This document shows, piece by piece, positions 601 to 39,423 of a stretch of 64,000 bases of DNA. The DNA comes from a plasmid. The notes beneath the pieces are model-generated. The model was not told the origin of the DNA and made no database searches. It saw only the letters and a program-made list of their open reading frames with translations. A program made the position numbers and the translations under genes. The stretch lies in the sequence record NZ_CP017043.1. The stretch is one strand, 5' to 3'. The stretch's first letter is position 1. Each line of letters begins with the position of its first letter.

Positions 601-798
601 TTATTTGCGGGAAAAACGGTTTTTGACACCATCATAAAACCGATCCAGCCGTCTTTCTAGGCGCGGATCCTCCTCTGTGAAGATCATGGTATAGTCTTTT
701 CCCTTGTCTTTTTTGGCGAGAGCCGCAATAAAAAGCCCGATCCCTATGCCAAATACAACGCAAAGAACCCATGACAGCATGATTATCCCTCCTCTCAT
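601..798 (-). CDS. small membrane protein (65 aa)
   Basis: ORF track. One strongly hydrophobic segment (LSWVLCVVFGIGIGLFIAALA). The start overlaps the upstream giant gene by 4 nt. Confidence 0.4.
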   Translation of the reverse strand: MRGGIIMLSWVLCVVFGIGIGLFIAALAKKDKGKDYTMIFTEEDPRLERRLDRFYDGVKNRFSRK

Positions 799-6700: not shown

Positions 6701-8006
6701 CAGATTCCTCTAGGGCATTCACGGCAGCCTCTGATTTTTCCGCTGGATGAAGCTCCTGTGCTGCTGCGGGAGTGGCATACGTCGCAGCCAGCTCATAGTA
6801 GGCTCGCCCGATCAGAGCGTTCTGCGCCTCCGACGAAAGCGTCTCTGCAGACATGAGTGCACGCACGAAAGAAAGGTACATTTCACGGGATTGTACGCCC
6901 GTAATATGACCTTCATTTCGTGCAGTTTGAACGTCTTCGAAGAATTTGTTTGCAGATTCCTCCTGCAAAACATCAGGAATGCGGATCGAAAATTCGTCTA
7001 CACGAACGCTTCCTGGGGCTCCGGCATGATCTCCGCCGCCAGGCGTTCCCGCACCTCGGCGAGAACGCTGTTGTAGCTCTGAATCCACTGCATCACGTCG
7101 CGCTTCTTGAGGTCTTCCGTCACGCCGTCCCGCTTGCAGATCGCTGCTGTCAGCGCCTCCGACTGTTCGAACATCATGTCCTCGTAGTCTCTCAGATACT
7201 GATCCAGCGTCCCTGCGTCCAGCATCCGCTTCCACTCCTCCGGCTGGGTTCTGTGCAAATAATCCCGCCTCATGTCGCCCCAAATCCCATAGAGAGATTT
7301 CAGGATCACTTCTTCGGTCATTTGAATCTGCCTCCTTCTGCTTTGCAGCATTTGCTCTGTTCGCCGCAGTAATTGCATTGCCGAGCGAATCCAGAATCGT
7401 ACGCGAAACCTGATTGACCTCTCCCAGAACCACCGCAATATGGACATCTTGCGGAATAGAAAGCTCCGCCGGAAAGGTGTTTTGATTGGAAAGCCCCAGC
7501 CGCGACCGCACAACATATTCTACGCTCGCCGTTAAAAAATCAGCATGCTCCGAGTTCTGCGCCGCGGCAAGCTCTGCGGCCTTCGCTCGGATTGCCTCAT
7601 CCAGCGATCCGTCGCTCCCAAGCGTGCGCAGCACAAGTGCTTCGTGTGCAGGGGTAAACTGCCATGGAATCCCTTGTACCGCTGCATCCCCGTTTTGAAA
7701 AGCAATCGTATCCCGAATGTCATAGACATATCGAACGGTGTACTGATCATCGGGCTCCGATACCAGGAGCGGGATCGCGGCAGCACCATCACGCAATGTT
7801 GTTCGGAAAGAGTTTCGCCAAACATGATCCGGAGCAACGGCGCTTGCCTCAGCTGAGGCACGGTAATGCAGATTGATCTGCTCCATGATGGAATACTTAT
7901 GGAATTTGGCGATGGTATCAAGAAAAGCCCTATATTCTTGGGTACTATTGCTGACCTTAGTGAGATGGTCTCTTATTTCGAGCTGCAGCTGTTCTTTCTC
8001 TTCCAT
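795..8006 (-). CDS. giant fusion protein (2403 aa): N6-adenine DNA methyltransferase plus SNF2/DEAD-like helicase
   Basis: Methyltransferase motif I (ILDPSTGTGRFL) and motif IV (ISNVPFGNY, NPPF-like). Helicase motif I (LLAHVVGAGKTFEM), motif II (LYVDEAHFYKN), motif III (FATGTPLSNSMAELY) and motif VI (GSSDKLGVGTNIQDK). An RG/RD-rich low-complexity linker lies near aa 250-330. A GGAGG RBS precedes the ATG. Confidence 0.85.
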   Translation of the reverse strand: MEEKEQLQLEIRDHLTKVSNSTQEYRAFLDTIAKFHKYSIMEQINLHYRASAEASAVAPDHVWRNSFRTTLRDGAAAIPLLVSEPDDQYTVRYVYDIRDTIAFQNGDAAVQGIPWQFTPAHEALVLRTLGSDGSLDEAIRAKAAELAAAQNSEHADFLTASVEYVVRSRLGLSNQNTFPAELSIPQDVHIAVVLGEVNQVSRTILDSLGNAITAANRANAAKQKEADSNDRRSDPEISLWDLGRHEAGLFAQNPAGGVEADAGRRDAGSVSERLRGHDVRTVGGADSSDLQAGRRDGRPQEARRDAVDSELQQRSRRGAGTPGGGDHAGAPGSVRVDEFSIRIPDVLQEESANKFFEDVQTARNEGHITGVQSREMYLSFVRALMSAETLSSEAQNALIGRAYYELAATYATPAAAQELHPAEKSEAAVNALEESAPGTDSVEAEKPALSMNSSIKEWYLEKYSDDSSGNYLKDITFQELSDALPMGSALYEYAGIDSSDMRENLFVQLTELSGRSYDDILSSWINTAAPEPVLDRAETLTDEHEDTAAEADAEPAAAPVEADEAATDSETVRPVYEAEIIDPQTIDLPAAEDHAETDAPPIIDAEFAEVDLSTLDLSADMSTTAGKRAVFQRNLAAVQIANHLDRTGNLPNEGELEVLRAYSGFGGLSEAFDARNTAWHSEHQQAKEIMTEPEYMSARASTLDAFYTPPEIVQAIYSGLEQAGFQQGTILDPSTGTGRFLHHMPSSMKEQSRRVGVELDMLTAKVAQYAADGATILNKGFERIRFPQNSFDLAISNVPFGNYIITDSNYDRNYFVHDYFLKKMMDQVRPGGLVVAITSHGTMDKKDDSLRRELAQKGELIRAVRLPNQLFEAAGTNVLSDLLIFRKREKELAPDAELPAWVNADWQEVVHFDGSKRIEDGYHLNRYFIEHPSDILGTLSMRNMAFGIEPYVEGHSGKALADELSAVLASIPANSYQPLPDALPIPQEVEAPSHNQPFGLYEQNGTLVYYTPQGTIETVAFDKKTEQKILLAIQIRDQIWAMYDAELRDCSDTELTQYQATLNELYDEYMKKYGRIYEDNKLRQNFSKDASYPLLLSLEIVENGEFVGKSDIFSKRTIHAYTPPDHADTPGEALMISMQEKGRVDIPYMAKLTGLSAEEVVEDLEYTSIFEDMETNSYLPADEYLSGDVRARMENLERQIQKWQQEMQGIAEEQVFPVPKLFQRQRSCSNISTEKLTVWNGIRLLSNEQKKDLFLEENRGAFYYAMDHSSDELQIRYFDFLEKSAPEMTAALHDPLFYLECLRNNVMFNFEINEAHRIFSDTITALGIDAWQVTNGTVDTKTMGFLFKTFSDYESGAHPEVLEPERLASALQEHLQTYDEKIDAVKNGGGNPLVSYLHSEIHRANKNLAALEKVKPKDLTADEIKINLGATWIPTEDIEQFIKDVLEYRGTNRLVQYAASTGEWKVESKMDTHRSNKVKMYSTFGTKDANALAILEAALNHRQIRIRNDKGVVIEDASLLVAQKMDNLRDEFLKWVYRDEERKNRLVSYYNRHFNNIVPREFDGSRLSFPGMNPEIQLKKHQKDAVAHTLYGGNTLLAHVVGAGKTFEMQASAMESKRIGLCKKSLMIMPGHLTEQFGAEFLRLYPNAKILVATPKDFQKDKRAEFCAKITGQDWDAVIMSYEQFGKIPLSLERQEQFLKREIQELTDSLEAMRIAKEGRGFSVKQMEKQIKKLTKQYEAIMEAYQSRQDATITFEQLGIDRLYVDEAHFYKNLSFTTKIQGLNSAGAEKSTDLLAKIQYLNEVTNERGVVFATGTPLSNSMAELYTMQRYLRPSRLEKQGLYHFDAWASAFGQETTTMEIDPAGKGFRAKTRFARFNNIPELMSMFKEFADVKTADSLKLPVPEYEIEIVKAEASQLQKDIVDRLAERAKLIRQRKPIQLRADADKSTGKGMDNMLVVVKEGQSAALDPRIIDPSYPDNPDGKVNLCVNNVYKIYEETSDKQSTQVIFCDQSTPNPKASFTVYADIREKLVEKGVPKEQIAFIHDYDTPEKKEALFTRVRKGEVRVLLGSSDKLGVGTNIQDKLIASHDLDCPWKPSQIEQRFGRIVRRGNENEKVKVFRYVTDATFDSYMWQTNETKQRFISQVMTNRTPVREAEDVDEFTMTYAQLKAACTGNPLYKEQFELRNALQKLGAERAQYMEDQSKLNHRLNVGLPSFIKSAECYLKNVQKDIETIEQHQDDKTFVLQGVAYNTPKEIGEVLADCARAIYDGKLKETPRGTYCGMKISVVQNENHHIEVVFSGMTTNTFRIGATTPEENAARLENAPRTVFGRLPLAEAEVERLRQEVKDCEEGLGKPFPKEAEFQEKTLRYNEVNLLIEEQNKQEDQLVTKDLEEKQTEAASR

Positions 8007-15154: not shown

Positions 15155-16114
15155 TCAAGTTACTTCATGATAAATGTACTTTTTCGAGGCCGGATCCCAG
15201 CGCTCAAGTTCGAGTATTTCCTGCACTTTTCGCGTCTTCCCAATGTATTTGAGATAGACGATATAGTGTACCGCCTGGGCGATCGTTGCCTGCTGCGGGT
15301 TCCGAGAGACACGCGCCGTCATGTTCTCAAGGCGAAGAAGCGTATCCACGGCAGAATTGCTGTGAACCGTTGAGCAGCCTCCCCCATGCCCCGTAGACCA
15401 GGCATCGAGGAGCGCCAACGCTTCACCAGAACGAACTTCTCCAACCACAATGCGATCCGGCGTCATACGCAGCACCTGCTTGAGGCAATCCTCCATGGAA
15501 AATGTTGGTGTTGCACGCATCTGCACGCAGTCAACGGCGCTGCATTGCAGCTCTGGGGTATCCTCAATCAGGATGACACGATCATCCAGCTTGGAGATCT
15601 CGGCCAAGATGGCATTGAGAAATGTTGTCTTGCCGGATTTTGTTCCCCCGGCCGCAATGATATTCTTCTTGTGATGGATAGCGTCGATCAGGAAATCATA
15701 TTGTTTTTCCGTCAGCGTCCCCTGTTCAACATAGTTCTCCAGCGAAAATATGGTCTCAGGGTGCTTCCGAATATTGAGGGTTGGTGCAGAAACGATATTG
15801 GGAAGATTCCCTTCAAAGCGGCATTTGGGGAAAAACGAGTTGGACGGAATGTCCGCATCAAGGGCAGGACGCTCCGATACGACCAGCTGCCCTGTCAGCG
15901 CAGCCACATTGAGAATGATCCCGCGCGTATCTTCCGGGGAAATATTTTTCCCCGTATAAGCTCTCCCCTTGCCAAGACTGTCCGTCCAGATCTTGCCGTC
16001 CGGATTCACATATACCTCGAAGACGTTTTTATCCTGCATAAACGGCATGATCGCTTTCATCGAGGTAATGAGCGCATCCATTGTGATGTTATACCGCTCA
16101 CTATTGCTGTTCAT
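15155..16114 (-). CDS. virB11: VirB11/TrbB family secretion ATPase
   Basis: Walker A AAGGTKSGKTTFLNA, Asp box RVILIEDTPEL, His-box region RIVVGEVRSGEA, and GHGGGCSTVHSNSA. Confidence 0.9.
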   Translation of the reverse strand: MNSNSERYNITMDALITSMKAIMPFMQDKNVFEVYVNPDGKIWTDSLGKGRAYTGKNISPEDTRGIILNVAALTGQLVVSERPALDADIPSNSFFPKCRFEGNLPNIVSAPTLNIRKHPETIFSLENYVEQGTLTEKQYDFLIDAIHHKKNIIAAGGTKSGKTTFLNAILAEISKLDDRVILIEDTPELQCSAVDCVQMRATPTFSMEDCLKQVLRMTPDRIVVGEVRSGEALALLDAWSTGHGGGCSTVHSNSAVDTLLRLENMTARVSRNPQQATIAQAVHYIVYLKYIGKTRKVQEILELERWDPASKKYIYHEVT

Positions 16115-19014
16115 TCTTCGTTACGCTCCTTGTTCATTGTCCCTAAAAAGGCATCCAAGCCTAACAGTGGGCTGCTGCCGTTGGTCGTATCCCCCGCTTC
16201 TTCGGTGTCTGCATCGAAAAGATCAAGATCATCGTCCATATCCAGCTCCTCCGGCGCAGCCTCGTCAAAGTCCTCCTGATCGCCAAAAAGGAAATTGGAA
16301 AGCTGTATGTCGCTGTTCTCCCCTTCTGAGGCCGCAGCTTCCTCTGCGTCCGCATTGACGGCAAGAATGGAGGCATCCAGATCAATGAGATCTGATACGG
16401 CATCTGCGGGAGACGGCGTTTCTTCATGCACCTGCAGGATGTTCATACGCCTTTTTGCCTTGCTCTCCATCTCTTCCTGGATGGCCGATTGATGAGTGTC
16501 TTCAACCGCTGCCTGATACCGACGATTTTCGGGGTCTACCTCTTGCGGACTTTCTGTCCGTGTCCGATGATCGGCGGCTGCTTCACTTTCGATATTTTCG
16601 GGCTGGCCGACAGGTTCTTCTTGCCCTGCTGCTGCAATCCCTGCGCTGGAGATCTCTTGCTCATTCAGCTCCTCCTCGGGGTGTTCCCCTGTAATGCGGA
16701 AAATCACATCCTTTTCGTATTGCGCCTTCTCCGCCTCGAGTTTTTGGACATAATCCTTATACGACATTCCGGCTTTGTTCGCCTGATCCTCAAGAACCCG
16801 CTTCCGATCATCCTCTTTCGCGGCCTGATCGGCTGCATGGACATCGAACAGCTCCTTGAAATTCGTGACGCGTGTCACGGTATCACTCACCGCCGGACAT
16901 TTTATCTGTGTCCGTTTGATGAGGAACGGATACTCATAATAACGCAGCTTGTCTCCAAAGATGGCTTTATGCCCGGCCACAAAGACGAGTTCTTTCTCTG
17001 AACTCATCTGGGCGACTTCATCCGGCGTCAAGAGTTCTCGGCCGGTCTGCGACGTAGAGTTTGAGCCCTTGAAAAAGCCGCCGCCCCCGTCGCTGTGCGA
17101 GATGGTCGATATTGTGCGTTTGCCAAGCGTCTTTGAAATTGCCTCGGCCGTTGCACCGCCGGAGTCGATATTAGGGGTAAAATAGATATGCACATGACAG
17201 TTTGAGCCGATGGAGTTGTCTTTGGTGTACTCCTTGTTGAGCTGGTTGACATCCTGGCAGACGATGCAGACTTTGATTCCATAGCCCGCACAGATGGCAA
17301 GCGCAAGCTCTATGCACTTCATATTGCCTAACTGCGGAAACTCATCCAACATGAGCAGAAGGCGCTGCTTCTTTGGCGCGGGTTTATTGGGATCCGTGTC
17401 AAATTTCATGTCCCGTATGAGCTTCGAACAGATCATCTGGATGAAGAGACGTGCAATCGGCTTGACGGCCGCAATATCTTTGACCTCCATGCAGAGATAC
17501 AGCGATACTTCCTGCTGCGGATCGAGCAGGTCGCGAATCGCAAAATCCGATACGCTTGTGTTGTTTTGCACGACCGGATCCTGATAGATCGCCAAAGAGG
17601 TTTGTGCGGTCTGCATAATCGAGGCCGTAGTCTGCTGCGCACCATTCAGAATGTTGGCCGCGCATTCGGCCACCTTCGGATGGGACAACAGCAGATGATA
17701 TGGCGCATTGGTTGGCAGCCCCGTCTGATCTACTGCCTCCCACTGGATTTTCTCCCCTTTTTTGATCTTCTGCTGCAGCGCAACGCGGATCTCATCAATG
17801 GATTTTACCTTGGTATCGAGTGCCTGGGCAAAGGGGCGAAAATCCTTGATATATTCCCCGTAGATTTCCTTGAGCGGATTCTTTTTGCGTTTCACAATCC
17901 CATTTTCATCAAGAATGGGCTTCCCGTCGGCGCCGATCTCTTCCACTTCCAGGAATTCATCCGGGCTGATATGCGGATAATCACGCATATCCGTAAAAAG
18001 CTCTTCCGTTGACTTATCCGGACTGGAGAGAAATGACATAATGTCCGTCGGACACGGGAGCGGCCGCTCCTCTCTATCATGTTTATAAAGCAAGTGCAGG
18101 ATAACGCCGTTCAGGAGAGCTGCAGCCGAGTTCGGCCAAAACTCATCGCCGCCCTTTGATTCTCCATCCGGGCGCACCATGACCGAAACGATAGACTGAA
18201 CGTCCGATAACTCCTCGCTCGTACGATAATTGACCTCGGCCAGTGGGTTCCACCGTGCTGCGGATCCATCCGTGCAGAGCGGCTGAAACTTGAGTACCTT
18301 CTGCTTCAGGACGTTCTTCCGATAGCCGCTGGTCAGGCTCCAGAGTTCGCCCTTCGGATCGAAAAAGAAGATACTGTGCTTCCAGATCAATCCCGTGGGG
18401 ATGATCGTGCAGACGCCCTTACCGCTGCGGGTCGGAGCCATGAGAAGCATATGCTCCACGCCGTCATGCAGCATGAGCTTATGGGTATATGGATTGATAC
18501 CGACAACAACGCCGGAATCCTTGATGATCTTCTCCTTTTTGGTGTAAGGGATCAATCCAAGGAATCTCTTCTTTGTTTTCCTATACTCGTATACGCCCCC
18601 GTTTTTCGAGACGTAAGCGCCGAGATCCGATTTTTCGATGTCCTTGCTCGACGCAAAAGAAGCGCTGCCATGTGATGTCTGCACCAAAAACGCCTTTTTG
18701 AGGAAATACATGCAGACCATGGAGAGCAGCAAAACCAGCTGGGCAAATGACGAGTACGCATCGAGAATATCCGGAATTGCCTTACTGATATGCTCATCAT
18801 ATGACCACACCAGGTAATCATACGGAGGATAAATTTTACTGCCGCCGAGCTCTATATAACTTCCGAGCAAGGGATGATAGTCACACTCCTCTGCTACCGC
18901 CTGTGTCGCATACCATTGCGTTATCAGCATCAAAACAGCGAAAATGAGCACCGTATAAAGAAACGCCTTCTTTTGTGCTGTACGATGAATCTCTTCATCT
19001 ATCATCTCAATCAC
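16111..19014 (-). CDS. virD4: type IV coupling protein VirD4/TraG family
   Basis: N-terminal TMs, Walker A LLMAPTRSGKGV, Walker B LLLMLDEFPQLG. The long acidic C-terminal tail ends in DMDDDLDLFDADTEE. Confidence 0.9.
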   Translation of the reverse strand: MIEMIDEEIHRTAQKKAFLYTVLIFAVLMLITQWYATQAVAEECDYHPLLGSYIELGGSKIYPPYDYLVWSYDEHISKAIPDILDAYSSFAQLVLLLSMVCMYFLKKAFLVQTSHGSASFASSKDIEKSDLGAYVSKNGGVYEYRKTKKRFLGLIPYTKKEKIIKDSGVVVGINPYTHKLMLHDGVEHMLLMAPTRSGKGVCTIIPTGLIWKHSIFFFDPKGELWSLTSGYRKNVLKQKVLKFQPLCTDGSAARWNPLAEVNYRTSEELSDVQSIVSVMVRPDGESKGGDEFWPNSAAALLNGVILHLLYKHDREERPLPCPTDIMSFLSSPDKSTEELFTDMRDYPHISPDEFLEVEEIGADGKPILDENGIVKRKKNPLKEIYGEYIKDFRPFAQALDTKVKSIDEIRVALQQKIKKGEKIQWEAVDQTGLPTNAPYHLLLSHPKVAECAANILNGAQQTTASIMQTAQTSLAIYQDPVVQNNTSVSDFAIRDLLDPQQEVSLYLCMEVKDIAAVKPIARLFIQMICSKLIRDMKFDTDPNKPAPKKQRLLLMLDEFPQLGNMKCIELALAICAGYGIKVCIVCQDVNQLNKEYTKDNSIGSNCHVHIYFTPNIDSGGATAEAISKTLGKRTISTISHSDGGGGFFKGSNSTSQTGRELLTPDEVAQMSSEKELVFVAGHKAIFGDKLRYYEYPFLIKRTQIKCPAVSDTVTRVTNFKELFDVHAADQAAKEDDRKRVLEDQANKAGMSYKDYVQKLEAEKAQYEKDVIFRITGEHPEEELNEQEISSAGIAAAGQEEPVGQPENIESEAAADHRTRTESPQEVDPENRRYQAAVEDTHQSAIQEEMESKAKRRMNILQVHEETPSPADAVSDLIDLDASILAVNADAEEAAASEGENSDIQLSNFLFGDQEDFDEAAPEELDMDDDLDLFDADTEEAGDTTNGSSPLLGLDAFLGTMNKERNEE

Positions 19015-27935: not shown

Positions 27936-29081
27936 TCAAGGACTCGCCCGTCCATCCACAATTCCATGTCTTCGCAGAAACTCCTGGGCAAACACAGATC
28001 CCTCACCGTCGGCAGCTGCCTGGCGTGTGAGAAACTCGTGCAGGTTTTGTCGGTGTTCTTGTTTTTGCTCTTTTGGGGCAGGAGGCGGTACAGGTGGAAC
28101 ATAACTGCCAGGGGGCTGTGTTTGGGTTGGAGTTGATTCTTGCCGTGGAGTAACAGGCGCAAATGTATAGTTTTCTTTGAGCGCAGCATGAAGCCAGCCC
28201 GTCGGATTCCGGATGATCTTCGTCTGCATGGCGATCTCCAAAAGTCGGGCTTTGTCGCGCACTTTCTCCTCTCCGTAGCGACGAATAAACTGCTCCAGCG
28301 ATGATGTGGATACCCCCAGTGCAGCACAAAGGCCGCGAACGTCGCCTGTTGTTGTTTCACGTATTCTATGCGTGTTCTCTGTTGTAGTCTCTGTTACGCG
28401 CGCGCGCGAGGAGGGTGCCCAAACCCGCGCCGTTACTGGGGTTTCAGCACCTTCCGTCCGTGGTGTCAAATTGACCTCTGTACGTGGTTCATCTTGCTCC
28501 CCATGTGGTGTCATTTTGACACTTATGCGTGGTTCACCTGATTTGACCTTTTGACCTTCTATGTTATCTTCCGATATATCAGCGGCCTCATGTTCTGGTT
28601 GTGTGTCCTCGGGAGCATGGACGTCTTCGACATATTCCATCTGCTCTCGCATCGGTGGAGGCGCAGAAATACGCCGGTCGACACTTTCTACGCTCTCCTG
28701 AAATTGCTTATGTACGATTTTTTCACTAAGCTCTTCGATCAACTCATAGTTAATGGTGTAGGCCTTCGTCTTGTTGTAGGAATTTCCGATTACCGTCGAT
28801 AACATCACCTCTTGATCTTCAAGAGACTTGATGGTGCGTTTAATCGTGCTCTCCGACCAAAACGGAAATTGGACATTCCATTGCTTGACGGTATTATAAA
28901 TCCAACGGCGTCCGTATTCGTCGCAGATGCCCGCCTCACGGCTGATCCAGTATTGCAGCTGCTGCAGAAATATCGCCTCATTCAGGCCGATGAGAACGGC
29001 AAGGTTCGGCTGAACGGTAAGCGGGGATTCTTGGATCAGAAGACTTGACGCTGCCATCGTTCTCCACCTTCCTATTGCCAT
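27936..29081 (-). CDS. repA: replication initiator, RepA_N family
   Basis: N-terminal RepA_N-like domain (LIGLNEAIFLQQLQYWISREAGICDEYGRRWIYNTVKQW..FPFWSESTIKRTIKSLEDQEVM...KAYTINYELI), an acidic/Pro-rich linker, and a helical C-terminal domain. Confidence 0.6.
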   Translation of the reverse strand: MAIGRWRTMAASSLLIQESPLTVQPNLAVLIGLNEAIFLQQLQYWISREAGICDEYGRRWIYNTVKQWNVQFPFWSESTIKRTIKSLEDQEVMLSTVIGNSYNKTKAYTINYELIEELSEKIVHKQFQESVESVDRRISAPPPMREQMEYVEDVHAPEDTQPEHEAADISEDNIEGQKVKSGEPRISVKMTPHGEQDEPRTEVNLTPRTEGAETPVTARVWAPSSRARVTETTTENTHRIRETTTGDVRGLCAALGVSTSSLEQFIRRYGEEKVRDKARLLEIAMQTKIIRNPTGWLHAALKENYTFAPVTPRQESTPTQTQPPGSYVPPVPPPAPKEQKQEHRQNLHEFLTRQAAADGEGSVFAQEFLRRHGIVDGRASP

Positions 29082-29568: not shown

Positions 29569-30129
29569 TTATTCGAGCTCTATTTCTCTTGACTTCGCAA
29601 TGGACTTCATTTCCTTAAAGTAATCTATAAGAGCAAAATATTTCCTTCGCATCAGTCGTTTGTCTACCGAATCTGCTGGGTAACGCTCATCAATATGCGA
29701 CATGAAATCTTCCAGAGATCTTTCAACACCGTCTCCACATTGAACAATATTGCGATCTACAAAATAGCGTATGTCTGACGGAAGGCCTGCATATCCAAGA
29801 GATATAATTTGTACGATGTTTTCGCTTGAATTTGTTAAATCATTTAAGTCAGCATGATGTAATATTGCTCCATCGAGCTTTGCATTTGATATATCCGCAC
29901 CTCGAAGATCTGCATAGGATAAATCTGCATCACGTAAGTCGGCAAATTGTAATTGAGCACCATATAAATCTGCTCCGCCGAGATCCGCGCGCCGCAAATC
30001 TATGCCGCGAAGTTTAGCATGACGTAAGCAAGCTCCACCAAGAAATGCGTTCTGCAGGTTACAGTGCGATAAATTCACCCTTTCCAAATCTGCACGTTGC
30101 CCCCTTCTTCCGAGAAAGCCCATTTCCAA
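29569..30129 (-). CDS. pentapeptide-repeat protein (186 aa)
   Basis: Tandem A(D/N)LxG pentapeptides: ADLRGADLGGADLYGAQLQFADLRDADLSYADLRGADISNAKL. Confidence 0.85.
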   Translation of the reverse strand: MEMGFLGRRGQRADLERVNLSHCNLQNAFLGGACLRHAKLRGIDLRRADLGGADLYGAQLQFADLRDADLSYADLRGADISNAKLDGAILHHADLNDLTNSSENIVQIISLGYAGLPSDIRYFVDRNIVQCGDGVERSLEDFMSHIDERYPADSVDKRLMRRKYFALIDYFKEMKSIAKSREIELE

Positions 30130-30387: not shown

Positions 30388-30594
30388 TCAACAACAATCA
30401 TCACAGGATTCTCCTAAGTCCTCGACCACCTGAATTTCCATAAAATCAGATTCAAAACAGGAACAGGATTGTTCCACAAGTTCATGGAGATTATCAAGAT
30501 TCTCCACCTTCTCACGCGCCTCATCTTCATCCTCCGCCTCGATCACGATCTCACCGGACAGATCATAAGAAAACGCAACCATGAATTTTCTCAT
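30388..30594 (-). CDS. small acidic Cys-rich protein (68 aa)
   Basis: Start MRKFMVAFSY with a GGAGG RBS 5 nt upstream. Very acidic, with a C-terminal CSCF...CDDCC. Confidence 0.4.
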   Translation of the reverse strand: MRKFMVAFSYDLSGEIVIEAEDEDEAREKVENLDNLHELVEQSCSCFESDFMEIQVVEDLGESCDDCC

Positions 30595-30669
30595 ACGATG
30601 ACCTCCTCTCGTGGTTCGTATATGATTTCCTTGCCAAGTTGTGCTCCCAGTTTTGGAGTACATAGATGG

Positions 30670-30745
30670 CATCCGCTTCGCGTCATCGCCGTTGTGATGC
30701 GAAGATACGCATCCCATTCCAGACCGCTCTACAAGAAACTCTATA
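30670..30745. repeat. 76-bp perfect direct repeat, copy 1
   Basis: catccgcttcgcgtcatcgccgttgtgatgcgaagatacgcatcccattccagaccgctctacaagaaactctata is identical to 32268-32343. It contains an imperfect hairpin cttcgcgtcatc..gatgcgaag. Confidence 0.9.
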
Positions 30746-30898
30746 ATGCTTTGTGTGCGGGTGATTGGCGCGGTGCATTACAATCGCTGCGGGATCATGG
30801 TCTATGGCGACATCGACGCTCCGTCCGACGGCACACGCAATACCGCTTGAAGCACCGCCGCCACCCGCAAAAACATCAACGATGATCTCATTCAGCAT
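30746..30898 (-). pseudogene. C5-cytosine DNA methyltransferase (dcm-like) N-terminal fragment, truncated after about 50 codons
   Basis: MLNEIIVDVFAGGGGASSGIACAVGRSVDVAIDHDPAAIVMHRANHP carries Dcm motif I (FxGxGG) and the following IDxD region. The frame then reads through the 76-bp repeat into nonsense and stops. No downstream methyltransferase motifs are present. Confidence 0.65.
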
Positions 30899-31256
30899 TT
30901 TCTAATTCCTCGAAATAGAACCTGATCGGCCGGTGCGCTTTATCGGTCTCTGTGATTACCCCATATTGCATGGCTATGTGAAAGATAAAAACCTTCTCCA
31001 GACGCTCCAATACGGTTCCGACATATTCGCGAAACTGCTCAATATCAAGCGTGCTTTTATAGTAATTGCATTTCCTGCACGCAGGTTTGTAGTTGGAGAG
31101 AGCGTTCTCTCCCCCTTTACGCAAAGGATAGACATGATCTACCCGCATTTTTTGGATGTTATCAATCTTTCTCCCACAGTACGCGCAGCGTCCCCCATAC
31201 ATTTCATAAACTTGACAGCGTACCTGCTGAGAAATGCGTTTTCTCTTCGTCTGCAT
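30888..31256 (-). CDS. HNH endonuclease
   Basis: CAYCGRKIDN...VDHVYPLRKGGENALSNYKPACRKCNYYK is the HNH/zinc-finger core. Confidence 0.8.
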   Translation of the reverse strand: MQTKRKRISQQVRCQVYEMYGGRCAYCGRKIDNIQKMRVDHVYPLRKGGENALSNYKPACRKCNYYKSTLDIEQFREYVGTVLERLEKVFIFHIAMQYGVITETDKAHRPIRFYFEELENAE

Positions 31257-31307
31257 TTCAACGCCTCCAAATCGACAACAACAGCAGTCTCAATCGCCGC
31301 TGTGGCG

Positions 31308-32216
31308 CTACGCAATATAATCCTCAAAGCGATCGCAGCTACGGAAGATGATTTTATTATTCACCCATCTCTGCAAACGTCGAGCGGTCACAGGAGCGTT
31401 GGGTTTATCGTAGACCATAATATATGGATCATACGCATGATCTTTGAGCCAGTAGACGCGCGCCAGGTCTTCCTCGTGCGTGCTCCAATAATTGACAAGC
31501 ACATATACGCGCCTCTTCCGGAAATCTGTGACAGATGTGCGTTTTGCAAAGGCAGATAACGCTCTAGGAACGCTCCAATCCTTTGGATTATCCCATGCAA
31601 AATGCAGCATTTTCACTTTACAGGCGCTGAGGAGATCCATATTTTCCGGTGTGAACAGTCGCGCGTCGAGACCTTGCGTAAAATCAATCCATGCGCCGCT
31701 ATGAGCAAGCTGTTCTAAAAGTTCCATATGCTCTTTTGCCGCCAAAATATTGGGATCAAGCAGCTTGATTATGCGTTCCCCATGCCAAAATTCATTGAGA
31801 TCCGCGACTTTGTGACTTTCATAACCTTCTTTCCAGCCAACGATGCAAAAGGGACATGCACGCGGGCAACCTCTCGTCAGAAAGCCATAAGCAATTCCTT
31901 GAATGTTATAGAGCGAATAATCCGGACGCATATGTTCAATATGCGCCGGAAGCTGTGCGGCGCTGGTAGTTCCCGTCCCTCCGATTTCTGCACCAATCTC
32001 CGCAAGGCGTATGGAAAGCCCTTGATTCTGCGTAAACACACAGGCTGCATAAAGTTTTTCATATGGCTGAAACAAATTATTCCCCAACAGGACATCTTCA
32101 GGATAAAGCAGATGAACCTGGTCGCCCTGTTTCTTATGCCACGCCGACAGCTTCATCAGGCACAAATTGGGGAATTTCCCACCATCTACGTCAATAAGGC
32201 CAATAGTCATCGCCAT
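31308..32216 (-). CDS. radical SAM domain protein with an N-terminal extension of about 110 aa
   Basis: CxxxCxxC cluster in FLTRGCPRACPFCIV at about aa 117. The N-terminal segment IGLIDVDGGKFPNLCLMKLSAWHKKQGDQV is an extra domain ahead of the radical-SAM core. Confidence 0.6.
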   Translation of the reverse strand: MAMTIGLIDVDGGKFPNLCLMKLSAWHKKQGDQVHLLYPEDVLLGNNLFQPYEKLYAACVFTQNQGLSIRLAEIGAEIGGTGTTSAAQLPAHIEHMRPDYSLYNIQGIAYGFLTRGCPRACPFCIVGWKEGYESHKVADLNEFWHGERIIKLLDPNILAAKEHMELLEQLAHSGAWIDFTQGLDARLFTPENMDLLSACKVKMLHFAWDNPKDWSVPRALSAFAKRTSVTDFRKRRVYVLVNYWSTHEEDLARVYWLKDHAYDPYIMVYDKPNAPVTARRLQRWVNNKIIFRSCDRFEDYIA

Positions 32217-32267
32217 CTTTCACTTCTTCCACACTCTGAACTTCTATGAACGATGAAGAAAAACAGA

Positions 32268-32343
32268 CATCCGCTTCGCGTCATCGCCGTTGTGATGCGA
32301 AGATACGCATCCCATTCCAGACCGCTCTACAAGAAACTCTATA
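32268..32343. repeat. 76-bp perfect direct repeat, copy 2
   Basis: Identical to 30670-30745. It overlaps the 3' end and stop of the 117-aa wHTH gene. Confidence 0.9.
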
Positions 32344-32692
32344 CCTCAGAATTGATCTCGTAGATGTTTCGGTAAAAATTGTTATTCTCGTCCCGTGTTT
32401 GAATTCGGGTAATATATCCACAATCCACCAGCTGCTTCATATACTTCGCATAGGTATTCTTGTTGATGTTAAGGTCATAGCAAATCTGATCTCTGGGGAG
32501 ACAATCCGTATCGCCATATGCGCAGAGATAAGAGTAAATTGTCTTTGCAATCACATGTAAGTTTGGATCCTGCATGACAGATGTGCCGACTATGCCAGCA
32601 CCGTGTTCAAGCACATTTCTGGGATGTTGTCTGATACGTTCTTCCGTCACCTGCATATTAGAGTCTTGTATGTTGCTCATGATGACCTCCAA
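32339..32692 (-). CDS. winged-helix DNA-binding protein, RepA_N-like (117 aa)
   Basis: AKTIYSYLCAYGDTDCLPRDQICYDLNINKNTYAKYMKQLVDCGYITRIQTRDENNNFYRNIYEI follows the RepA_N consensus shape. Its last codons and stop lie inside repeat copy 2. Confidence 0.55.
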   Translation of the reverse strand: MEVIMSNIQDSNMQVTEERIRQHPRNVLEHGAGIVGTSVMQDPNLHVIAKTIYSYLCAYGDTDCLPRDQICYDLNINKNTYAKYMKQLVDCGYITRIQTRDENNNFYRNIYEINSEV

Positions 32693-32742
32693 AAACTAAT
32701 AATCACGCACTTTCATGCTCTTCAACGTGCGCAAAATAACAG

Positions 32743-32997
32743 CTACTCGTTCATCGCATCTACAAGCCATTGAGGAGCAAGAACATTTTTTCCATCATGG
32801 TCAAATAAGACTTGATATGTTACAAAGAATTCTTCTGCCGCCTCTTCAGTGTAATGTTCTTCTGCCAACTCTCCATCTTCAGGACAAAGCGTTTTCCAAA
32901 AAGAACTTTCGAGAAGTTGTTTTATGGCAGTGTCTCTTGCCCCAAAGCCAATACGATAATACGGATAAAGCACGCGAGCATTTCCCATAACGTTCAC
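32743..32997 (-). CDS. hypothetical protein (84 aa)
   Basis: ORF track. Acidic, no TM. Confidence 0.35.
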   Translation of the reverse strand: MNVMGNARVLYPYYRIGFGARDTAIKQLLESSFWKTLCPEDGELAEEHYTEEAAEEFFVTYQVLFDHDGKNVLAPQWLVDAMNE

Positions 32998-33045
32998 CGC
33001 TTTCTCGATTTATCAATCATCTGCCGTAAAAACATTTTTACCTTT

Positions 33046-34656
33046 TTAGATACTATGACCATGAATGATCTCACTTCGCTCAGGAGCTTCATACATGCGC
33101 GAGAGAAAATAATCGTTCTCCTGATATTGAACACCAGCCACATCAACACTTCGGGTATCCATAATAATCGAGTATTTGTTCTTTTTACCGAGGATAGAAA
33201 TCACCTGCATATCTGTCTTGCATCCATAAAATTTACAAGTCTGTAACAGCTCATCAAACAAAACAGCCTTCATCCCGCATAAAGAAATATAATTCAGCCC
33301 AGGGTATTCAAATATATTTAGGCGACCTAAAGACGTACACTCATCCATTAGAATCAAGCATCTGTATCTCCCTTTCATTGGCTCTCCCTTATATCCAAAT
33401 ATCCAGAGCATTTCCAAGAACACACGAAAAATTTGGGATGGTTGGCAAGAATTACCCGGTGGAGTCACCAGATACAAAGATACGGGCTGCGTGTGATTCA
33501 TAAGATCTTTTATACAGAAATCACTTCTTTCCGTATGGTGTCTAAGCACTGGATCAAGATAATCTTTGAGTGCTGCATTTATGATGGACAGAATATAACA
33601 CGCCTGATTATTCGGTATTGACACGATTCCGTGAAGTTTATGGTCAATAATTTTTTGTACCTTTTCCGGTTCCTCTAAAGATATATATGGATACTCCAAG
33701 GGTGTATCATATATTTTCCAATCCAAAGGCATCCAGGCATAAACAGGAGCTCCGTCTTTATCGACCATTCCAACCGTATGATCCTGTATATATTGAGCAA
33801 CATCATAAAGAGATAGAGACTTTGGATGCCGATCTTGATCAGCGTGATATGTATTTTTGAGATGCAGGATGATTTTCGTAAGAACATCGGCAACTTCTTC
33901 TACAACGTCATCACATACCATCATTTTCCCCATCCGGATCAAGGCCGACGAAAGCGTCTTTGCTACAAATAGCTTGTCAGGGCTGTCCATCCGTATCTCG
34001 TCAAGAGGATTCCAGCACGCAGATGTATCATCTGTTGCTGTCGGCTCGAATTTGATTATCGTGTTCCCGAGCCGCTTTCGATAACCTGCGGTGACTTCCC
34101 AGTATTCGCCTTTAATATCATGCACGACTACACTAGATTTCCAACCGTCAAGGAGCGTCGGGATGATAAATCGATCGCTTCGTCTGTGATTCGACTCACC
34201 CTCAATCAATATATGATTACTGGAATTATCTCGTAAATATAGGGGCATAGGGTTCATGTGGCGTTCGACAAACCAATTATATGCTGCTGTCCTTTTATCC
34301 GCAGGAAGTATCTTAGTTAATGGGGGCACTACGCCACTAAGAATTGTGTCATACTGGCCAATTACAACACCTTCATCAGAGATCAGTCCCATCTTGGCAT
34401 ATTTTTTATAACTTCCCTGCTTATTCCCGTCCTCATATTTTTTACAGAAATGTATAAGTATCGCAGTCAATAAACTAAACGCAACAAATGGTGTAATTAG
34501 ACCGATCAAGGCAACATCTTCTGATACTGTAAAATTAAGAATCAGCACTACAATGCTGCAAAACGTCAATCCCAAGACGCTGAGCTTAACGGTAAACACA
34601 GCCGTTATAAGCATGAGAAAAAAGCAGAAAACAGTCCATAAATCAATATGTATCAT
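33046..34656 (-). CDS. VirD4/TraG-family coupling-protein paralog with a degenerate Walker A
   Basis: N-terminal TMs. HILIEGESNHRRSDRFIIPTLLDGWKSSVVVHDIKGEYWEVTAGYRKRLGNTIIKFEPTATDDTSACWNPLDEIR aligns to the 967-aa T4CP (HMLLMAPTRSGKGVCTIIPTGL...DPKGELWSLTSGYRKN...LKFQPLCTDGSAARWNPLAEVN). The P-loop lysine and glycines are replaced by RRSD. Walker B LILMDECTSLG is retained. Confidence 0.75.
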   Translation of the reverse strand: MIHIDLWTVFCFFLMLITAVFTVKLSVLGLTFCSIVVLILNFTVSEDVALIGLITPFVAFSLLTAILIHFCKKYEDGNKQGSYKKYAKMGLISDEGVVIGQYDTILSGVVPPLTKILPADKRTAAYNWFVERHMNPMPLYLRDNSSNHILIEGESNHRRSDRFIIPTLLDGWKSSVVVHDIKGEYWEVTAGYRKRLGNTIIKFEPTATDDTSACWNPLDEIRMDSPDKLFVAKTLSSALIRMGKMMVCDDVVEEVADVLTKIILHLKNTYHADQDRHPKSLSLYDVAQYIQDHTVGMVDKDGAPVYAWMPLDWKIYDTPLEYPYISLEEPEKVQKIIDHKLHGIVSIPNNQACYILSIINAALKDYLDPVLRHHTERSDFCIKDLMNHTQPVSLYLVTPPGNSCQPSQIFRVFLEMLWIFGYKGEPMKGRYRCLILMDECTSLGRLNIFEYPGLNYISLCGMKAVLFDELLQTCKFYGCKTDMQVISILGKKNKYSIIMDTRSVDVAGVQYQENDYFLSRMYEAPERSEIIHGHSI

Positions 34657-35009
34657 ACGATCACTACCTCTCTCGGCTCATATATAATCTCCTTTCCAAG
34701 CTGCTCTGCAAGAGCAAGTTCCTCCCGAACGCCTCTGCTGTTCTCCCAGTTCTGCAGCACATAGATGGCATCGGCGCAGCGCACCATCTCCTTGGTGATC
34801 TGCAAATAGGCCTCCCATTCCATTCCCCACGGCAATACCGCAGGGTTCAGAACGATACTGTCTTGCTCTTGCAGCCGCTGTTCTGCCACGGCAAATATCT
34901 GCTTATAGTCAGCAATACCAGTGATTGCCCCAGCAATGAAAACAATTTTTCCCTCAAGATTCATTTTTACTGTCCTCCATGTCGAAATGGTCTCCAAATC
35001 TACAATCAC
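34653..35009 (-). CDS. DUF4406-like protein (nucleoside 2-deoxyribosyltransferase-like fold)
   Basis: KIVFIAGAITG...VLNPAVLP...ADAIYVLQNWENSRGVREELALAEQLGKEIIY matches the DUF4406 pattern. ATGA overlap with the upstream gene. Confidence 0.55.
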   Translation of the reverse strand: MIVDLETISTWRTVKMNLEGKIVFIAGAITGIADYKQIFAVAEQRLQEQDSIVLNPAVLPWGMEWEAYLQITKEMVRCADAIYVLQNWENSRGVREELALAEQLGKEIIYEPREVVIV

Positions 35010-38337: not shown

Positions 38338-39423
38338 TTGTCCGTCCATAAAGACACAAAGCGCGGAACATGGTACGTAAAGATCAAATACACCGACTGG
38401 ACAGGCGAAAAGAGGGAAACGACCCGCAGAGGATTCGCAAAGAAAAAAGACGCGCAGCTATTTGAGCAGGATTTTCACCGGCAGAAACAAGGCGCTCATT
38501 CCATGACCTTCAAGGCATTATATGATCTATACATGGAGGACATAAAACCACGCATAAGACCTACAACATATCGAAGCAAGGAATATATGTTCACCTCAAA
38601 GGTGTTGCCGTTCTTCGCAAATTTGCCTTGCGACCAGATTACTCCTGCAAAAATACGGCAGTGGCAAAACGAACTTGTCAAAGGCGATTATCAAGAGACA
38701 TACCTCCGTACTATCAACAACCAAGTTGCAGCCATCTTCAACTTTGCGGTAAATTATTATGGTCTACCAACTAACCCCGCAAAACGAGCAGGGATGATCG
38801 GAAAGAGTCATGCCGATGCAATGAGATTCTGGACGGTTGATGATTTTCAAAAATTTATCAATCACACCACTACTCCACTATACAGAATTTCTTTTTTAAT
38901 CCTTTTCTGGACAGGGATGCGTGTTGGAGAGTTTTTGGCACTGACCTTGGAGGACTTTGATTTTGACAAAAATTTGATACACATAACCAAAAGCTACGCA
39001 CGGCTAGATAACAAGACTATAATCGGCCCGCCTAAGACACCAAAGAGCCGCCGTGATGTCAGCATCCCTGCATTTCTTGTCGATGAAGTCCAGCAGTTTA
39101 TCCAAGCGCAGCATTCAATCAATCCAAATGCACGATTATTTGAAACCGGTAAACATGGATTATCTTATGAAATGAAGCGTGTAGCTGCACAGGTTGGCAT
39201 AGAGAAAATTCGCCTTCATGATCTTAGGCACTCTCATGCCTCCTATCTCATTCACCGAGGAATACCGATCATAGCGATTTCACAACGCCTCGGTCATGAA
39301 AAAATCGAGACTACACTACAAACCTACGCTCACCTATATCCACAAGAGCGCGATATGATTATTGCTGCCATCGAAAGCGATCCGGCAACAAAAGGAGGGT
39401 CAAACGGGGGTCACGGAAAATAA
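38338..39423 (+). CDS. int: tyrosine site-specific recombinase (integrase)
   Basis: Core-binding N-terminal domain. Catalytic region with TGMRVGEFLALT (Arg I), LHDLRHSHASYL (His/Arg II) and TTLQTYAHL (Tyr). Confidence 0.9.
   Translation: MSVHKDTKRGTWYVKIKYTDWTGEKRETTRRGFAKKKDAQLFEQDFHRQKQGAHSMTFKALYDLYMEDIKPRIRPTTYRSKEYMFTSKVLPFFANLPCDQITPAKIRQWQNELVKGDYQETYLRTINNQVAAIFNFAVNYYGLPTNPAKRAGMIGKSHADAMRFWTVDDFQKFINHTTTPLYRISFLILFWTGMRVGEFLALTLEDFDFDKNLIHITKSYARLDNKTIIGPPKTPKSRRDVSIPAFLVDEVQQFIQAQHSINPNARLFETGKHGLSYEMKRVAAQVGIEKIRLHDLRHSHASYLIHRGIPIIAISQRLGHEKIETTLQTYAHLYPQERDMIIAAIESDPATKGGSNGGHGK

Follow-up and report, generated by a model that had tools for sequence, protein, structure and literature searches.

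A radical SAM-HNH cassette between 76-bp direct repeats in a conjugative element, probably acquired by microhomology-mediated illegitimate recombination

Introduction

Microhomology-mediated illegitimate recombination and template switching are known from homology-facilitated illegitimate recombination and from events of the microhomology-mediated break-induced replication (MMBIR) and fork stalling and template switching (FoSTeS) type. Also well described are the free-standing HNH homing endonuclease genes of phages, which lie beside a conserved gene and whose products cut the endonuclease-free allele nearby. Both kinds of system bear on a cassette at 30670-32343 of a 64-kb stretch of record NZ_CP017043.1 (the window, to which all coordinates refer unless a contig is named), in which a radical SAM gene, an HNH endonuclease gene and the 5' fragment of a C5-cytosine methyltransferase gene (dcm) lie between two identical 76-bp sequences. 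Judging from its genes, the window is the carrier of an integrative conjugative element (ICE), with homologues of VirB4, CagX and TrbI, which correspond to a type IV secretion system (T4SS) of the VirB4/VirB9/VirB10 type, and with coupling proteins.

A preliminary description had read the locus as the footprint of homology-dependent, homing-like recombination. The window was compared with loci and contigs from metagenome assembly collections, which are given L-numbers below. The comparison points to a different origin: the cassette was probably joined into the element by illegitimate, microhomology-mediated recombination between related elements, with duplication of 76 nt of the target, rather than by homing, transposition or integration at an attachment (att) site.

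The repeats

Every gene of the cassette region lies on the minus strand, and its features are, in the order of transcription:

32339-32692, minus strand: winged helix-turn-helix (wHTH) gene; likely start ATG at 32680, giving 113 aa; stop TAG (32341-32339) inside repeat copy 2
32268-32343, minus strand: repeat copy 2; upstream junction with the wHTH gene apparently native, downstream end forming the left insertion junction
32217-32267, minus strand: 51-nt leader with a ribosome-binding site (RBS), which came with the cassette and is the PAPS-reductase/radical SAM intergenic region in the donors
31308-32216, minus strand: radical SAM gene, 302 aa
30888-31256, minus strand: HNH endonuclease gene, 122 aa, overlapping the dcm start by 11 nt
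30746-30898, minus strand: dcm 5' fragment, codons 1-51/52; motif I (FAGGGG) kept, catalytic region gone
30670-30745, minus strand: repeat copy 1; upstream end forming the right insertion junction with the dcm fragment, downstream continuation apparently native
30591-30669, minus strand: remaining 79 nt of a DUF4406 pseudogene 3' end, with a 37-nt internal deletion; its stop overlaps the p68 ATG (ATGA)
30388-30594, minus strand: p68, a 68-aa gene, natively preceded by an intact DUF4406 gene in relatives

The two repeat copies are in direct orientation, identical at 76 of 76 positions and spaced 1598 nt from start to start; by our own estimate, the chance expectation for such a perfect pair in 64 kb is about 1e-36. 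Perfect repeats carry a general risk of collapsed or chimeric joints in short-read assemblies, which is the only reason to consider an artefact here. The 76-bp unit is shorter than typical reads, and a base-by-base scan of ten loci (L001-L010) found both copies and the whole arrangement identical; five more (L012, L015, L016, L018 and L020) are 100% identical across both copies. Gene order is constant in 20 of the 20 loci L001-L020, on contigs of 57-239 kb that come from different samples and bear the naming styles of several assemblers. An assembly artefact is thus almost inconceivable, because the repeat is identical in these independent metagenome assemblies. In the assembly collection, 103 blocks have an index entry for the exact radical SAM protein and 161 have one for p68; look-ups of both exact proteins gave the same arrangement only, and it was the diverged homologues that were informative instead.

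Read on the minus strand, the repeat consists of 16 nt of wHTH 3' flank (TATAGAGTTTCTTGTA, including the stop codon) followed by 60 nt of a DUF4406 pseudogene. The first part is not DUF4406 sequence; it adjoins the wHTH gene in the cassette-free L165 and L168 and, in degenerate form, in L102 and L170. From GAGCGGTCTGG (GAGCGG) onward the repeat is 91-94% identical in nucleotides to the intact DUF4406 gene of L100. It is 75-86% identical to the window's own 118-aa DUF4406 paralogue (repeat families D2 and D4), the reference by which the identity of the repeat was recognised. Although this homology is clear, the remnant is truncated at its 5' end, contains in-frame stops and has lost 2 nt at one place and 37 nt at another, so that its reading frame is broken; the repeat is therefore a pseudogene fragment. 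The 2-nt frameshift deletion is shared by both copies, and the 37-nt deletion lies just after copy 1. Copy 2 had been read as the natural 3' terminus of the wHTH gene; of that gene the copy contains only the TAG stop, the rest of the repeat being mostly pseudogene.

Copy 1 runs on into the DUF4406 3' end that abuts p68. Five contigs (L094-L097 and L099) have an intact 103-aa DUF4406 gene, then p68 with an ATGA stop/start overlap, then p38 and, where the contig reaches, the M23 peptidase gene; the contig of L098 ends within the gene upstream of p68. The remnant before p68 therefore sits in its native place. Taken with the wHTH flank, this alignment evidence indicates that the native junction lies upstream in copy 2 and downstream in copy 1, in keeping with the earlier suggestion that copy 1 is a duplicated junction. 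By itself the repeat serves no function. The hairpin to which the preliminary description had drawn attention is not significantly more stable than shuffles of the sequence (z = -1.5 on the plus strand and -0.4 on the minus strand). In related elements DUF4406 directly precedes four genes, namely the T4SS coupling protein (T4CP)-like gene and p68, both with an ATGA overlap, the radical SAM gene and p84, and it seems to be a common recombination anchor between modules.

This distribution raises another account of the repeats, in which gene conversion made two independent old DUF4406 remnants, one before the radical SAM gene and one before p68, identical over 76 bp. DUF4406 does stand directly before radical SAM in L025-L027 and L168 and before p68 in L094-L097 and L099, and three segments of DUF4406 origin lie in direct orientation in the window. 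Such a history is nonetheless highly improbable: the repeat starts with wHTH flank instead of DUF4406, copy 2 is followed by the donor PAPS-reductase/radical SAM leader at about 97% identity and not by DUF4406, and each of the two boundaries of the conversion would need to fall on an independent truncation point.

The insert and its donor module

The 1,522 bp between the repeats, made up of the leader, the radical SAM gene, the HNH gene and dcm codons 1-51/52, can be matched to an intact module. Window 32277-30743 aligns with L100 1918-3452, in a human oral metagenome contig, at 97.9% identity (blastn). Over the roughly 1,535 nt of window 32277-30743/30745, L100, L162, L164, L165 and L166 are 97.7-98.6% identical to it in nucleotides, and L163 matches the insert as far as window 31234. 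L166 has the order DUF4406, p84, PAPS-reductase (PF01507; BrxP-like, E 1e-21), radical SAM, HNH, a 446-aa C5-methyltransferase (PF00145, E 4e-27), a second type of wHTH, M23 and Rep. The order of L100 is the same until the contig ends inside dcm, which is open there for at least 199 aa. A complete PAPS-reductase gene precedes the segment in L100 and L166, only a remnant of it does so in L164, and L162 has a different upstream junction; the full C5-methyltransferase gene continues the segment in L162, L164 and L166. Given the match of about 98%, the insert is therefore a fragment of a PAPS-reductase/radical SAM/HNH/C5-methyltransferase module, which brought with it the last 51-60 nt of the PAPS-reductase/radical SAM spacer. 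A more distant arrangement is seen in L168-L170, where radical SAM, HNH and a full dcm are followed by a window-type wHTH gene; the trio is about 75% identical to that of the window in nucleotides and the wHTH protein 95-97% identical in amino acids.

L165 holds two fusions of related genes. At 233-1123 of that contig a D12-class (Dam-type) N6-adenine methyltransferase is fused to a PAPS-reductase remnant in one open reading frame (ORF), and at 2544-3029 the first 52 aa of dcm are fused in frame to DUF4406 in an ORF of 161 aa.

Across assemblies the stretch from the wHTH gene to the pentapeptide-repeat gene is 99.1-100% identical, and backbone genes such as p84 (region 32693-33045) vary by 3-10% across L001-L020. 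The variation of the p84 region around a near-invariant cassette region points to backbone recombination, and the pattern fits a single event that would have been followed by spread. Between the window and L100 there are five synonymous and six non-synonymous codon differences in the radical SAM gene, and seven and three in the HNH gene, too few in either case to judge selection.

Unoccupied sites and junctions

In L165 and L168 the wHTH gene, a single repeat copy, the complete DUF4406 3' end and the next gene follow one another without interruption. When one repeat copy and the cassette are removed from the window in silico, the remaining sequence aligns colinearly with the same stretch of both contigs. 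With the donor module on one side and these single-copy sites on the other, the view of the preliminary description that the segment is an insertion stands. The unoccupied site and the donor also allow the joints to be placed to within a few nucleotides. At the left junction the target reads ...GCGAAGCGGATG/CCATC, the donor ...GATGAAGCTGATG/TCTGTTTTT (TCTG...) and the window ...GCGAAGCGGATG/TCTGTTTTT, so that the crossover falls within a 10-nt stretch that matches at 9 of 10 positions (GAAGCKGATG). At the right junction the target reads GAGGTAT/AGAG, the donor ...AAGCATTAT/TGTGAGAG and the window ...AAGCATTAT/AGAGTTT; the ends are GCATTAT/TGTG in the donor and GCATTAT/AGAG in the window, with 2-3 shared nucleotides (AT/TAT). 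Except for these microhomologies, the sequences that flank the cassette in the donor are unrelated to the target.

In the reconstruction that we propose, the accessory region would originally have had the order wHTH, 5'-truncated and frameshifted DUF4406 pseudogene, p68. A 1,522-bp fragment of the PAPS-reductase/radical SAM/HNH/C5-methyltransferase module of a sister element would then have been joined into the pseudogene. By a template switch during replication, synthesis may have left the target after the 76 nt, copied 1.52 kb of the donor and re-entered the target 76 nt upstream; with exit and re-entry points 76 nt apart on the target, those 76 nt would therefore end up on either side of the insert. 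Alternatively, related elements resident together (wHTH-R x dcm'-R, where R is the repeat and dcm' the truncated gene) may have undergone one or two unequal crossovers, an equivalent route to the same product. The exact route is what we infer. The radical SAM and HNH genes arrived intact and are presumably expressed with the element's accessory genes of DNA-modification and anti-restriction type.

Direct repeats that exactly flank a segment could also be left as attL/attR-like sequences by Campbell-type or site-specific integration, in which a circle with one 76-bp copy recombines with a resident copy. The element has a tyrosine integrase (38338-39423), and L168 has an independent duplication of 34 nt at the same wHTH/pseudogene site. 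Integration of this type is unlikely all the same. The cassette is without a recombinase, and its left joint lies in microhomology with the native upstream sequence of the donor; the joint was therefore made directly between target and donor and not via a pre-existing repeat on a circle. Moreover, the 76-bp unit is a piece of pseudogene with no dyad or core-site features and no significant hairpin. A precise loss of the cassette would leave a junction reading wHTH-R-CCATCTATG, and exact-pattern scans of JGI metagenome contigs and GTDB genomes found no precise excision product. A transposon or insertion sequence with target-site duplication was considered and rejected: the 1.52-kb insert has no transposase, no recombinase and no terminal inverted repeats, and the duplication measures 76 nt. 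To our knowledge, this is far longer than known target-site duplications.

Illegitimate joining is in keeping with other rearrangements in the same region of relatives. In L163 (1700-1830) the HNH gene is cut after eight codons and fused to the M23 upstream region via a 14-nt microhomology, AGAGAAAACGTATA, with the loss of HNH, dcm and wHTH. The 34-nt perfect direct repeat of L168, CTGAGGTGTAGAGTTTCTTGTAGAGCGGTCTGGA, lies at 4820-4853 and 5660-5693 of that contig, at the same wHTH/DUF4406-pseudogene site; between its copies lie a DUF4406 3' remnant, p84 and a chimeric ORF. Duplication has therefore occurred at least twice at this site, and joints at microhomologies are also seen in L167 and L237. 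Taken together, the rearrangements of these four contigs indicate that the region is prone to such events.

Several points weigh against the proposed origin. L165 carries the same truncated dcm on a different partner, the RBS of another DUF4406 copy; the truncation of dcm may therefore predate the duplication, and the history may be multi-step. A duplication of 76 nt is long for a simple end-joining event, and a template switch and successive crossovers are not separable from the sequence alone. The preliminary description had proposed a precise empty site with one 76-bp copy as the proof of insertion. The exact pattern (a single repeat preceded by the sequence upstream of copy 2 and followed by that downstream of copy 1) has no match among JGI metagenome contigs and GTDB genomes, so that no empty site identical to this element was found; the unoccupied sites that do exist, in L165 and L168, are in elements about 5-25% diverged in this stretch.

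The dcm fragment and the homing alternative

The dcm fragment starts at 30898 and its homology to dcm ends at 30743-30746; blastn matches to annotated DNA cytosine methyltransferases end at window 30743-30759. The dcm sequence stops at codon 51/52, before FSPDCKHFS, and the Pro-Cys catalytic motif is absent, where full-length relatives have 446-600 aa; the ORF that begins with the fragment has 71 aa. The fragment has no PF00145 match, and further dcm similarity was found in no frame of the window, which holds no 3' part anywhere. Plasmid and phage collections, searched at the DNA level, gave matches to the conserved dcm 5' end alone, at about 70%. On this evidence the piece is to be regarded as a dead, inert remnant and not as a frameshifted gene, which agrees with the truncation reported at the outset.

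The break itself recurs. In three junctions dcm is broken directly after AAGCATT (codon 51/52): at 30743-30746 of the window, at about 2697 of L165 and at about 3807 of L025. The sequence at the breakpoint in dcm is AAGCATT/ATTGTGAGAG. In the window dcm is joined to the repeat, in L165 to the RBS of a DUF4406 copy and in L025 to a 520-nt module with a 152-aa gene; the L025 family is 74-80% identical and lacks the HNH gene. A general truncation hotspot at codon 52 was considered and rejected, given that 59 of 59 homologues of the dcm N-terminus in IMG/VR read past it as HYCESVWDVDP...; the coincidence is confined to the element family. A nuclease hotspot is possible, with the cut site of the adjacent HNH enzyme as one candidate cause. 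HNH-bearing and HNH-free alleles have the same sequence at the candidate site, which weighs against a cut by HNH, and an immunity-type sequence change there is rejected for the same reason.

The recurrent breakpoint is relevant to the homing reading of the preliminary description, in which cleavage of a cassette-free allele by the HNH enzyme is repaired from the donor, so that radical SAM, HNH and the dcm fragment are copied together. The HNH gene of the cassette is intact, its presence beside radical SAM is sporadic in the wider family (12 of 100 loci; in L028 radical SAM is followed directly by dcm, and L174 and L177 also lack HNH), and the shared break after AAGCATT could mark a nuclease cut. 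Homing is very improbable here even so, since it needs homology on both sides, and the donor flanks (the PAPS-reductase intergenic region and the body of dcm) are unrelated to the target beyond the 9/10-nt and 2-3-nt matches. It would not duplicate 76 nt of target. HNH-containing alleles retain an identical putative cut sequence, and the L025 family has the break without the HNH gene. In addition, the radical SAM-HNH-dcm trio is conserved to about 75% nucleotide identity in a conjugative-element subfamily (L168-L170), where HNH is a constant member. The data are thus better met by the joining of a donor fragment at microhomologies, as proposed above.

The radical SAM and HNH proteins

The preliminary description had recognised a radical SAM protein, with CxxxCxxC at about residue 117, and an HNH nuclease in the segment, and both assignments hold. 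The motif C117-x3-C121-x2-C124 is invariant in a set of 29 homologues, and likewise in one of 37. The match to Pfam PF04055 reaches 19.2 bits (E 0.0014), under the cut-off of 29.5, and the protein has no NCBIfam match and no match among PADLOC defence models. A full-length match was found to phrog_9298, "radical SAM domain protein" (E 6e-90). In the AlphaFold model (pLDDT 88) the protein is predicted to consist of an N-terminal B12-binding-like Rossmann domain and a partial TIM-barrel radical SAM core. The N-terminal fold of the predicted structure superposes on TsrM, MgmA, CysS, TokK and isolated B12-binding proteins, with AprD4 as the top match. AprD4 has a cobalamin-binding-like domain but is not known to use cobalamin. 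The N-terminal domain, which had been called unusual, is therefore of the B12-binding-like Rossmann kind found in AprD4, TsrM and MiaB-type enzymes. Sequence and profile searches of the PDB gave only marginal matches, to MiaB and RimO (E 0.02-0.2). The protein is not of MiaB type, because its N-terminal domain has a single conserved cysteine, C59, and there is no TRAM domain; it ends at residue 302 with no extra C-terminal domain.

More than 8,000 homologues of the radical SAM protein were found in a protein search, and Clostridium phage phiCT453B gp19, encoded in an early replication module, is 52.5% identical in amino acids. Among 100 loci with enough flank, the genes within 4 kb include a C5-methyltransferase in 36, an SNF2 helicase in 15, HNH in 12, a PAPS-reductase in about 10 and ParB in nine. 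The radical SAM gene thus sits in DNA-modification neighbourhoods, a neighbourhood that proves no function. The setting is the one that had been proposed for the window, and the donor module, with its PAPS-reductase and full C5-methyltransferase, and the Dam-type methyltransferase near the cassette genes in L165 bear it out.

The HNH protein matches PF01844 at 41.4 bits against a cut-off of 21.4 (E 1.6e-10), HNH_5 at 37.9 bits against 27.5 (E 1.6e-9) and phrog_2118 (E 1.7e-29), and by these matches it would be a standard small HNH nuclease. Its gene is kept after radical SAM in L162, L164-L166 and L168-L170 and in the prophage loci L030, L031, L034 and L036. A functional reading of the trio of radical SAM, HNH and C5-methyltransferase, often with PAPS-reductase, would be a nucleic-acid hypermodification or anti-restriction module of conjugative elements and temperate phages, in which the radical SAM enzyme might act on DNA, for example on the methyltransferase product, and HNH might be a site-specific nuclease that cuts after AAGCATT. 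As a whole this proposal is unlikely; such a cut site, if true, would explain the breakpoint common to the window, L165 and L025.

The surrounding element

The genes around the cassette region are listed below.

38338-39423: tyrosine integrase of the ICE
34653-35009, minus strand: intact DUF4406 paralogue, 118 aa (PF14359, E 1.4e-28), upstream of the T4CP-like gene
33046-34656, minus strand: T4SS coupling-protein-like gene, 536 aa, matching positions 37-321 only of the T4SS-DNA_transf profile
32997-32743, minus strand: p84, an 84-aa gene
29569-30129, minus strand: pentapeptide-repeat gene, between p37 and the M23 peptidase gene
29545-29072, minus strand: M23 peptidase gene
29081-27936, minus strand: Rep-like gene, 381 aa

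The wHTH protein had been described as RepA_N-like; its Pfam match is HTH_36 (E 8e-6) and not RepA_N, and it also has PHROG replication-initiator and DnaD-like N-terminal matches. It is 60% identical in amino acids to residues 1-110 of a 371-aa Rep-like protein of L025, the homology ending at the repeat, and thus appears to correspond to the N-terminal DNA-binding part of the Rep-like protein of relatives. The exact 113-aa protein of the window was found in one other contig only, the cassette-free L102, where a degenerate remnant of about 35 nt follows the wHTH gene and then M23 comes directly. The cassette-bearing loci that were read all have a slightly different wHTH gene (99.1-99.7% nucleotide identity).

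L102 lacks the pentapeptide-repeat gene, and so does the p68-p38-M23 backbone in L094 and L097-L098. For most sister loci the gene call gives 212 aa; the ORF of the window has 186 aa and a TTG start, and in this it is similar to the split gene of L006. An imperfect 35-nt direct repeat (28460-28539; 77% identity, 45-nt spacing) within the Rep-like gene of 381 aa may be iteron-like or a coding repeat. A scan of the region for promoters and terminators gave nothing above background.

Beyond the tyrosine integrase lie a topoisomerase and a MobA/MobL relaxase. A second coupling protein of the window (16111-19014) has the full 967 aa with a TraG-D_C domain. A protein of 2403 aa (795-8006) has both an N6 DNA methylase domain and an SNF2 helicase, as is typical of the anti-restriction giants of conjugative elements. 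A scan of GTDB genomes with the T4CP-like protein, aimed at relatives of the element, returned only Legionella matches of about 30% identity.

Comparison with known systems

Several described systems resemble parts of the locus. A search of the literature on DUF4406 and on radical SAM/PAPS-reductase/dcm modules yielded only background on mobile-element PAPS-reductases: homologues in mobile elements, together with BrxP of BREX type 4 and DndC of the Dnd system, have been discussed (PMC11437467). The locus resembles orphan methyltransferase and anti-restriction clusters in that the donor has a PAPS-reductase and a C5-methyltransferase, L165 a D12 methyltransferase and the window the 2403-aa N6-methyltransferase/SNF2 protein. 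Unlike such clusters, the window has no PAPS-reductase and its C5-methyltransferase is truncated.

The radical SAM protein shares the CxxxCxxC cluster motif with AprD4, TsrM, MgmA, CysS, TokK, MiaB and RimO, but it is shorter than these (302 aa versus 417-658 aa) and only 10-16% identical to them. In contrast to MiaB and RimO, it has neither a TRAM or other C-terminal domain nor a three-cysteine auxiliary cluster. The members of phrog_9298, such as phiCT453B gp19 and that of a Bacteroides LoVEphage, match it over the full length and are found among early replication and DNA-modification genes; they are phage genes, whereas that of the window is on a conjugative element and in a truncated module. 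The family is often found by orphan DNA methyltransferases (36 of the 100 loci) and may be a reasonable candidate for a new nucleic-acid-modifying activity.

The HNH gene is like the free-standing homing endonuclease genes of phages in being a small ORF between conserved radical SAM and dcm genes, in overlapping the dcm start, in its patchy distribution across the radical SAM family and in the recurrent breakpoint 150 nt into dcm. It differs from them in being kept with its neighbours at about 75% nucleotide identity in a conjugative-element subfamily, and the flanking homology on which homing depends is missing at this site. The flanking direct repeats here do not signal a mobile cassette or homing.

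The closest likeness is to events of the MMBIR/FoSTeS type, in which, as here, foreign DNA is joined at microhomologies of 2-10 nt, the target is duplicated and similar rearrangements cluster in relatives. The 76-nt duplication and the dcm end held in common with L165 set the locus apart from a simple event of that type and suggest a possible multi-step history, its route being read from the sequence. In short, the structure is routine mobile-element mosaicism, real but ordinary. It shows how the accessory regions of conjugative elements from the gut and mouth are rebuilt, with DUF4406 segments and microhomologies as joints, modules swapped and dead fragments left behind.

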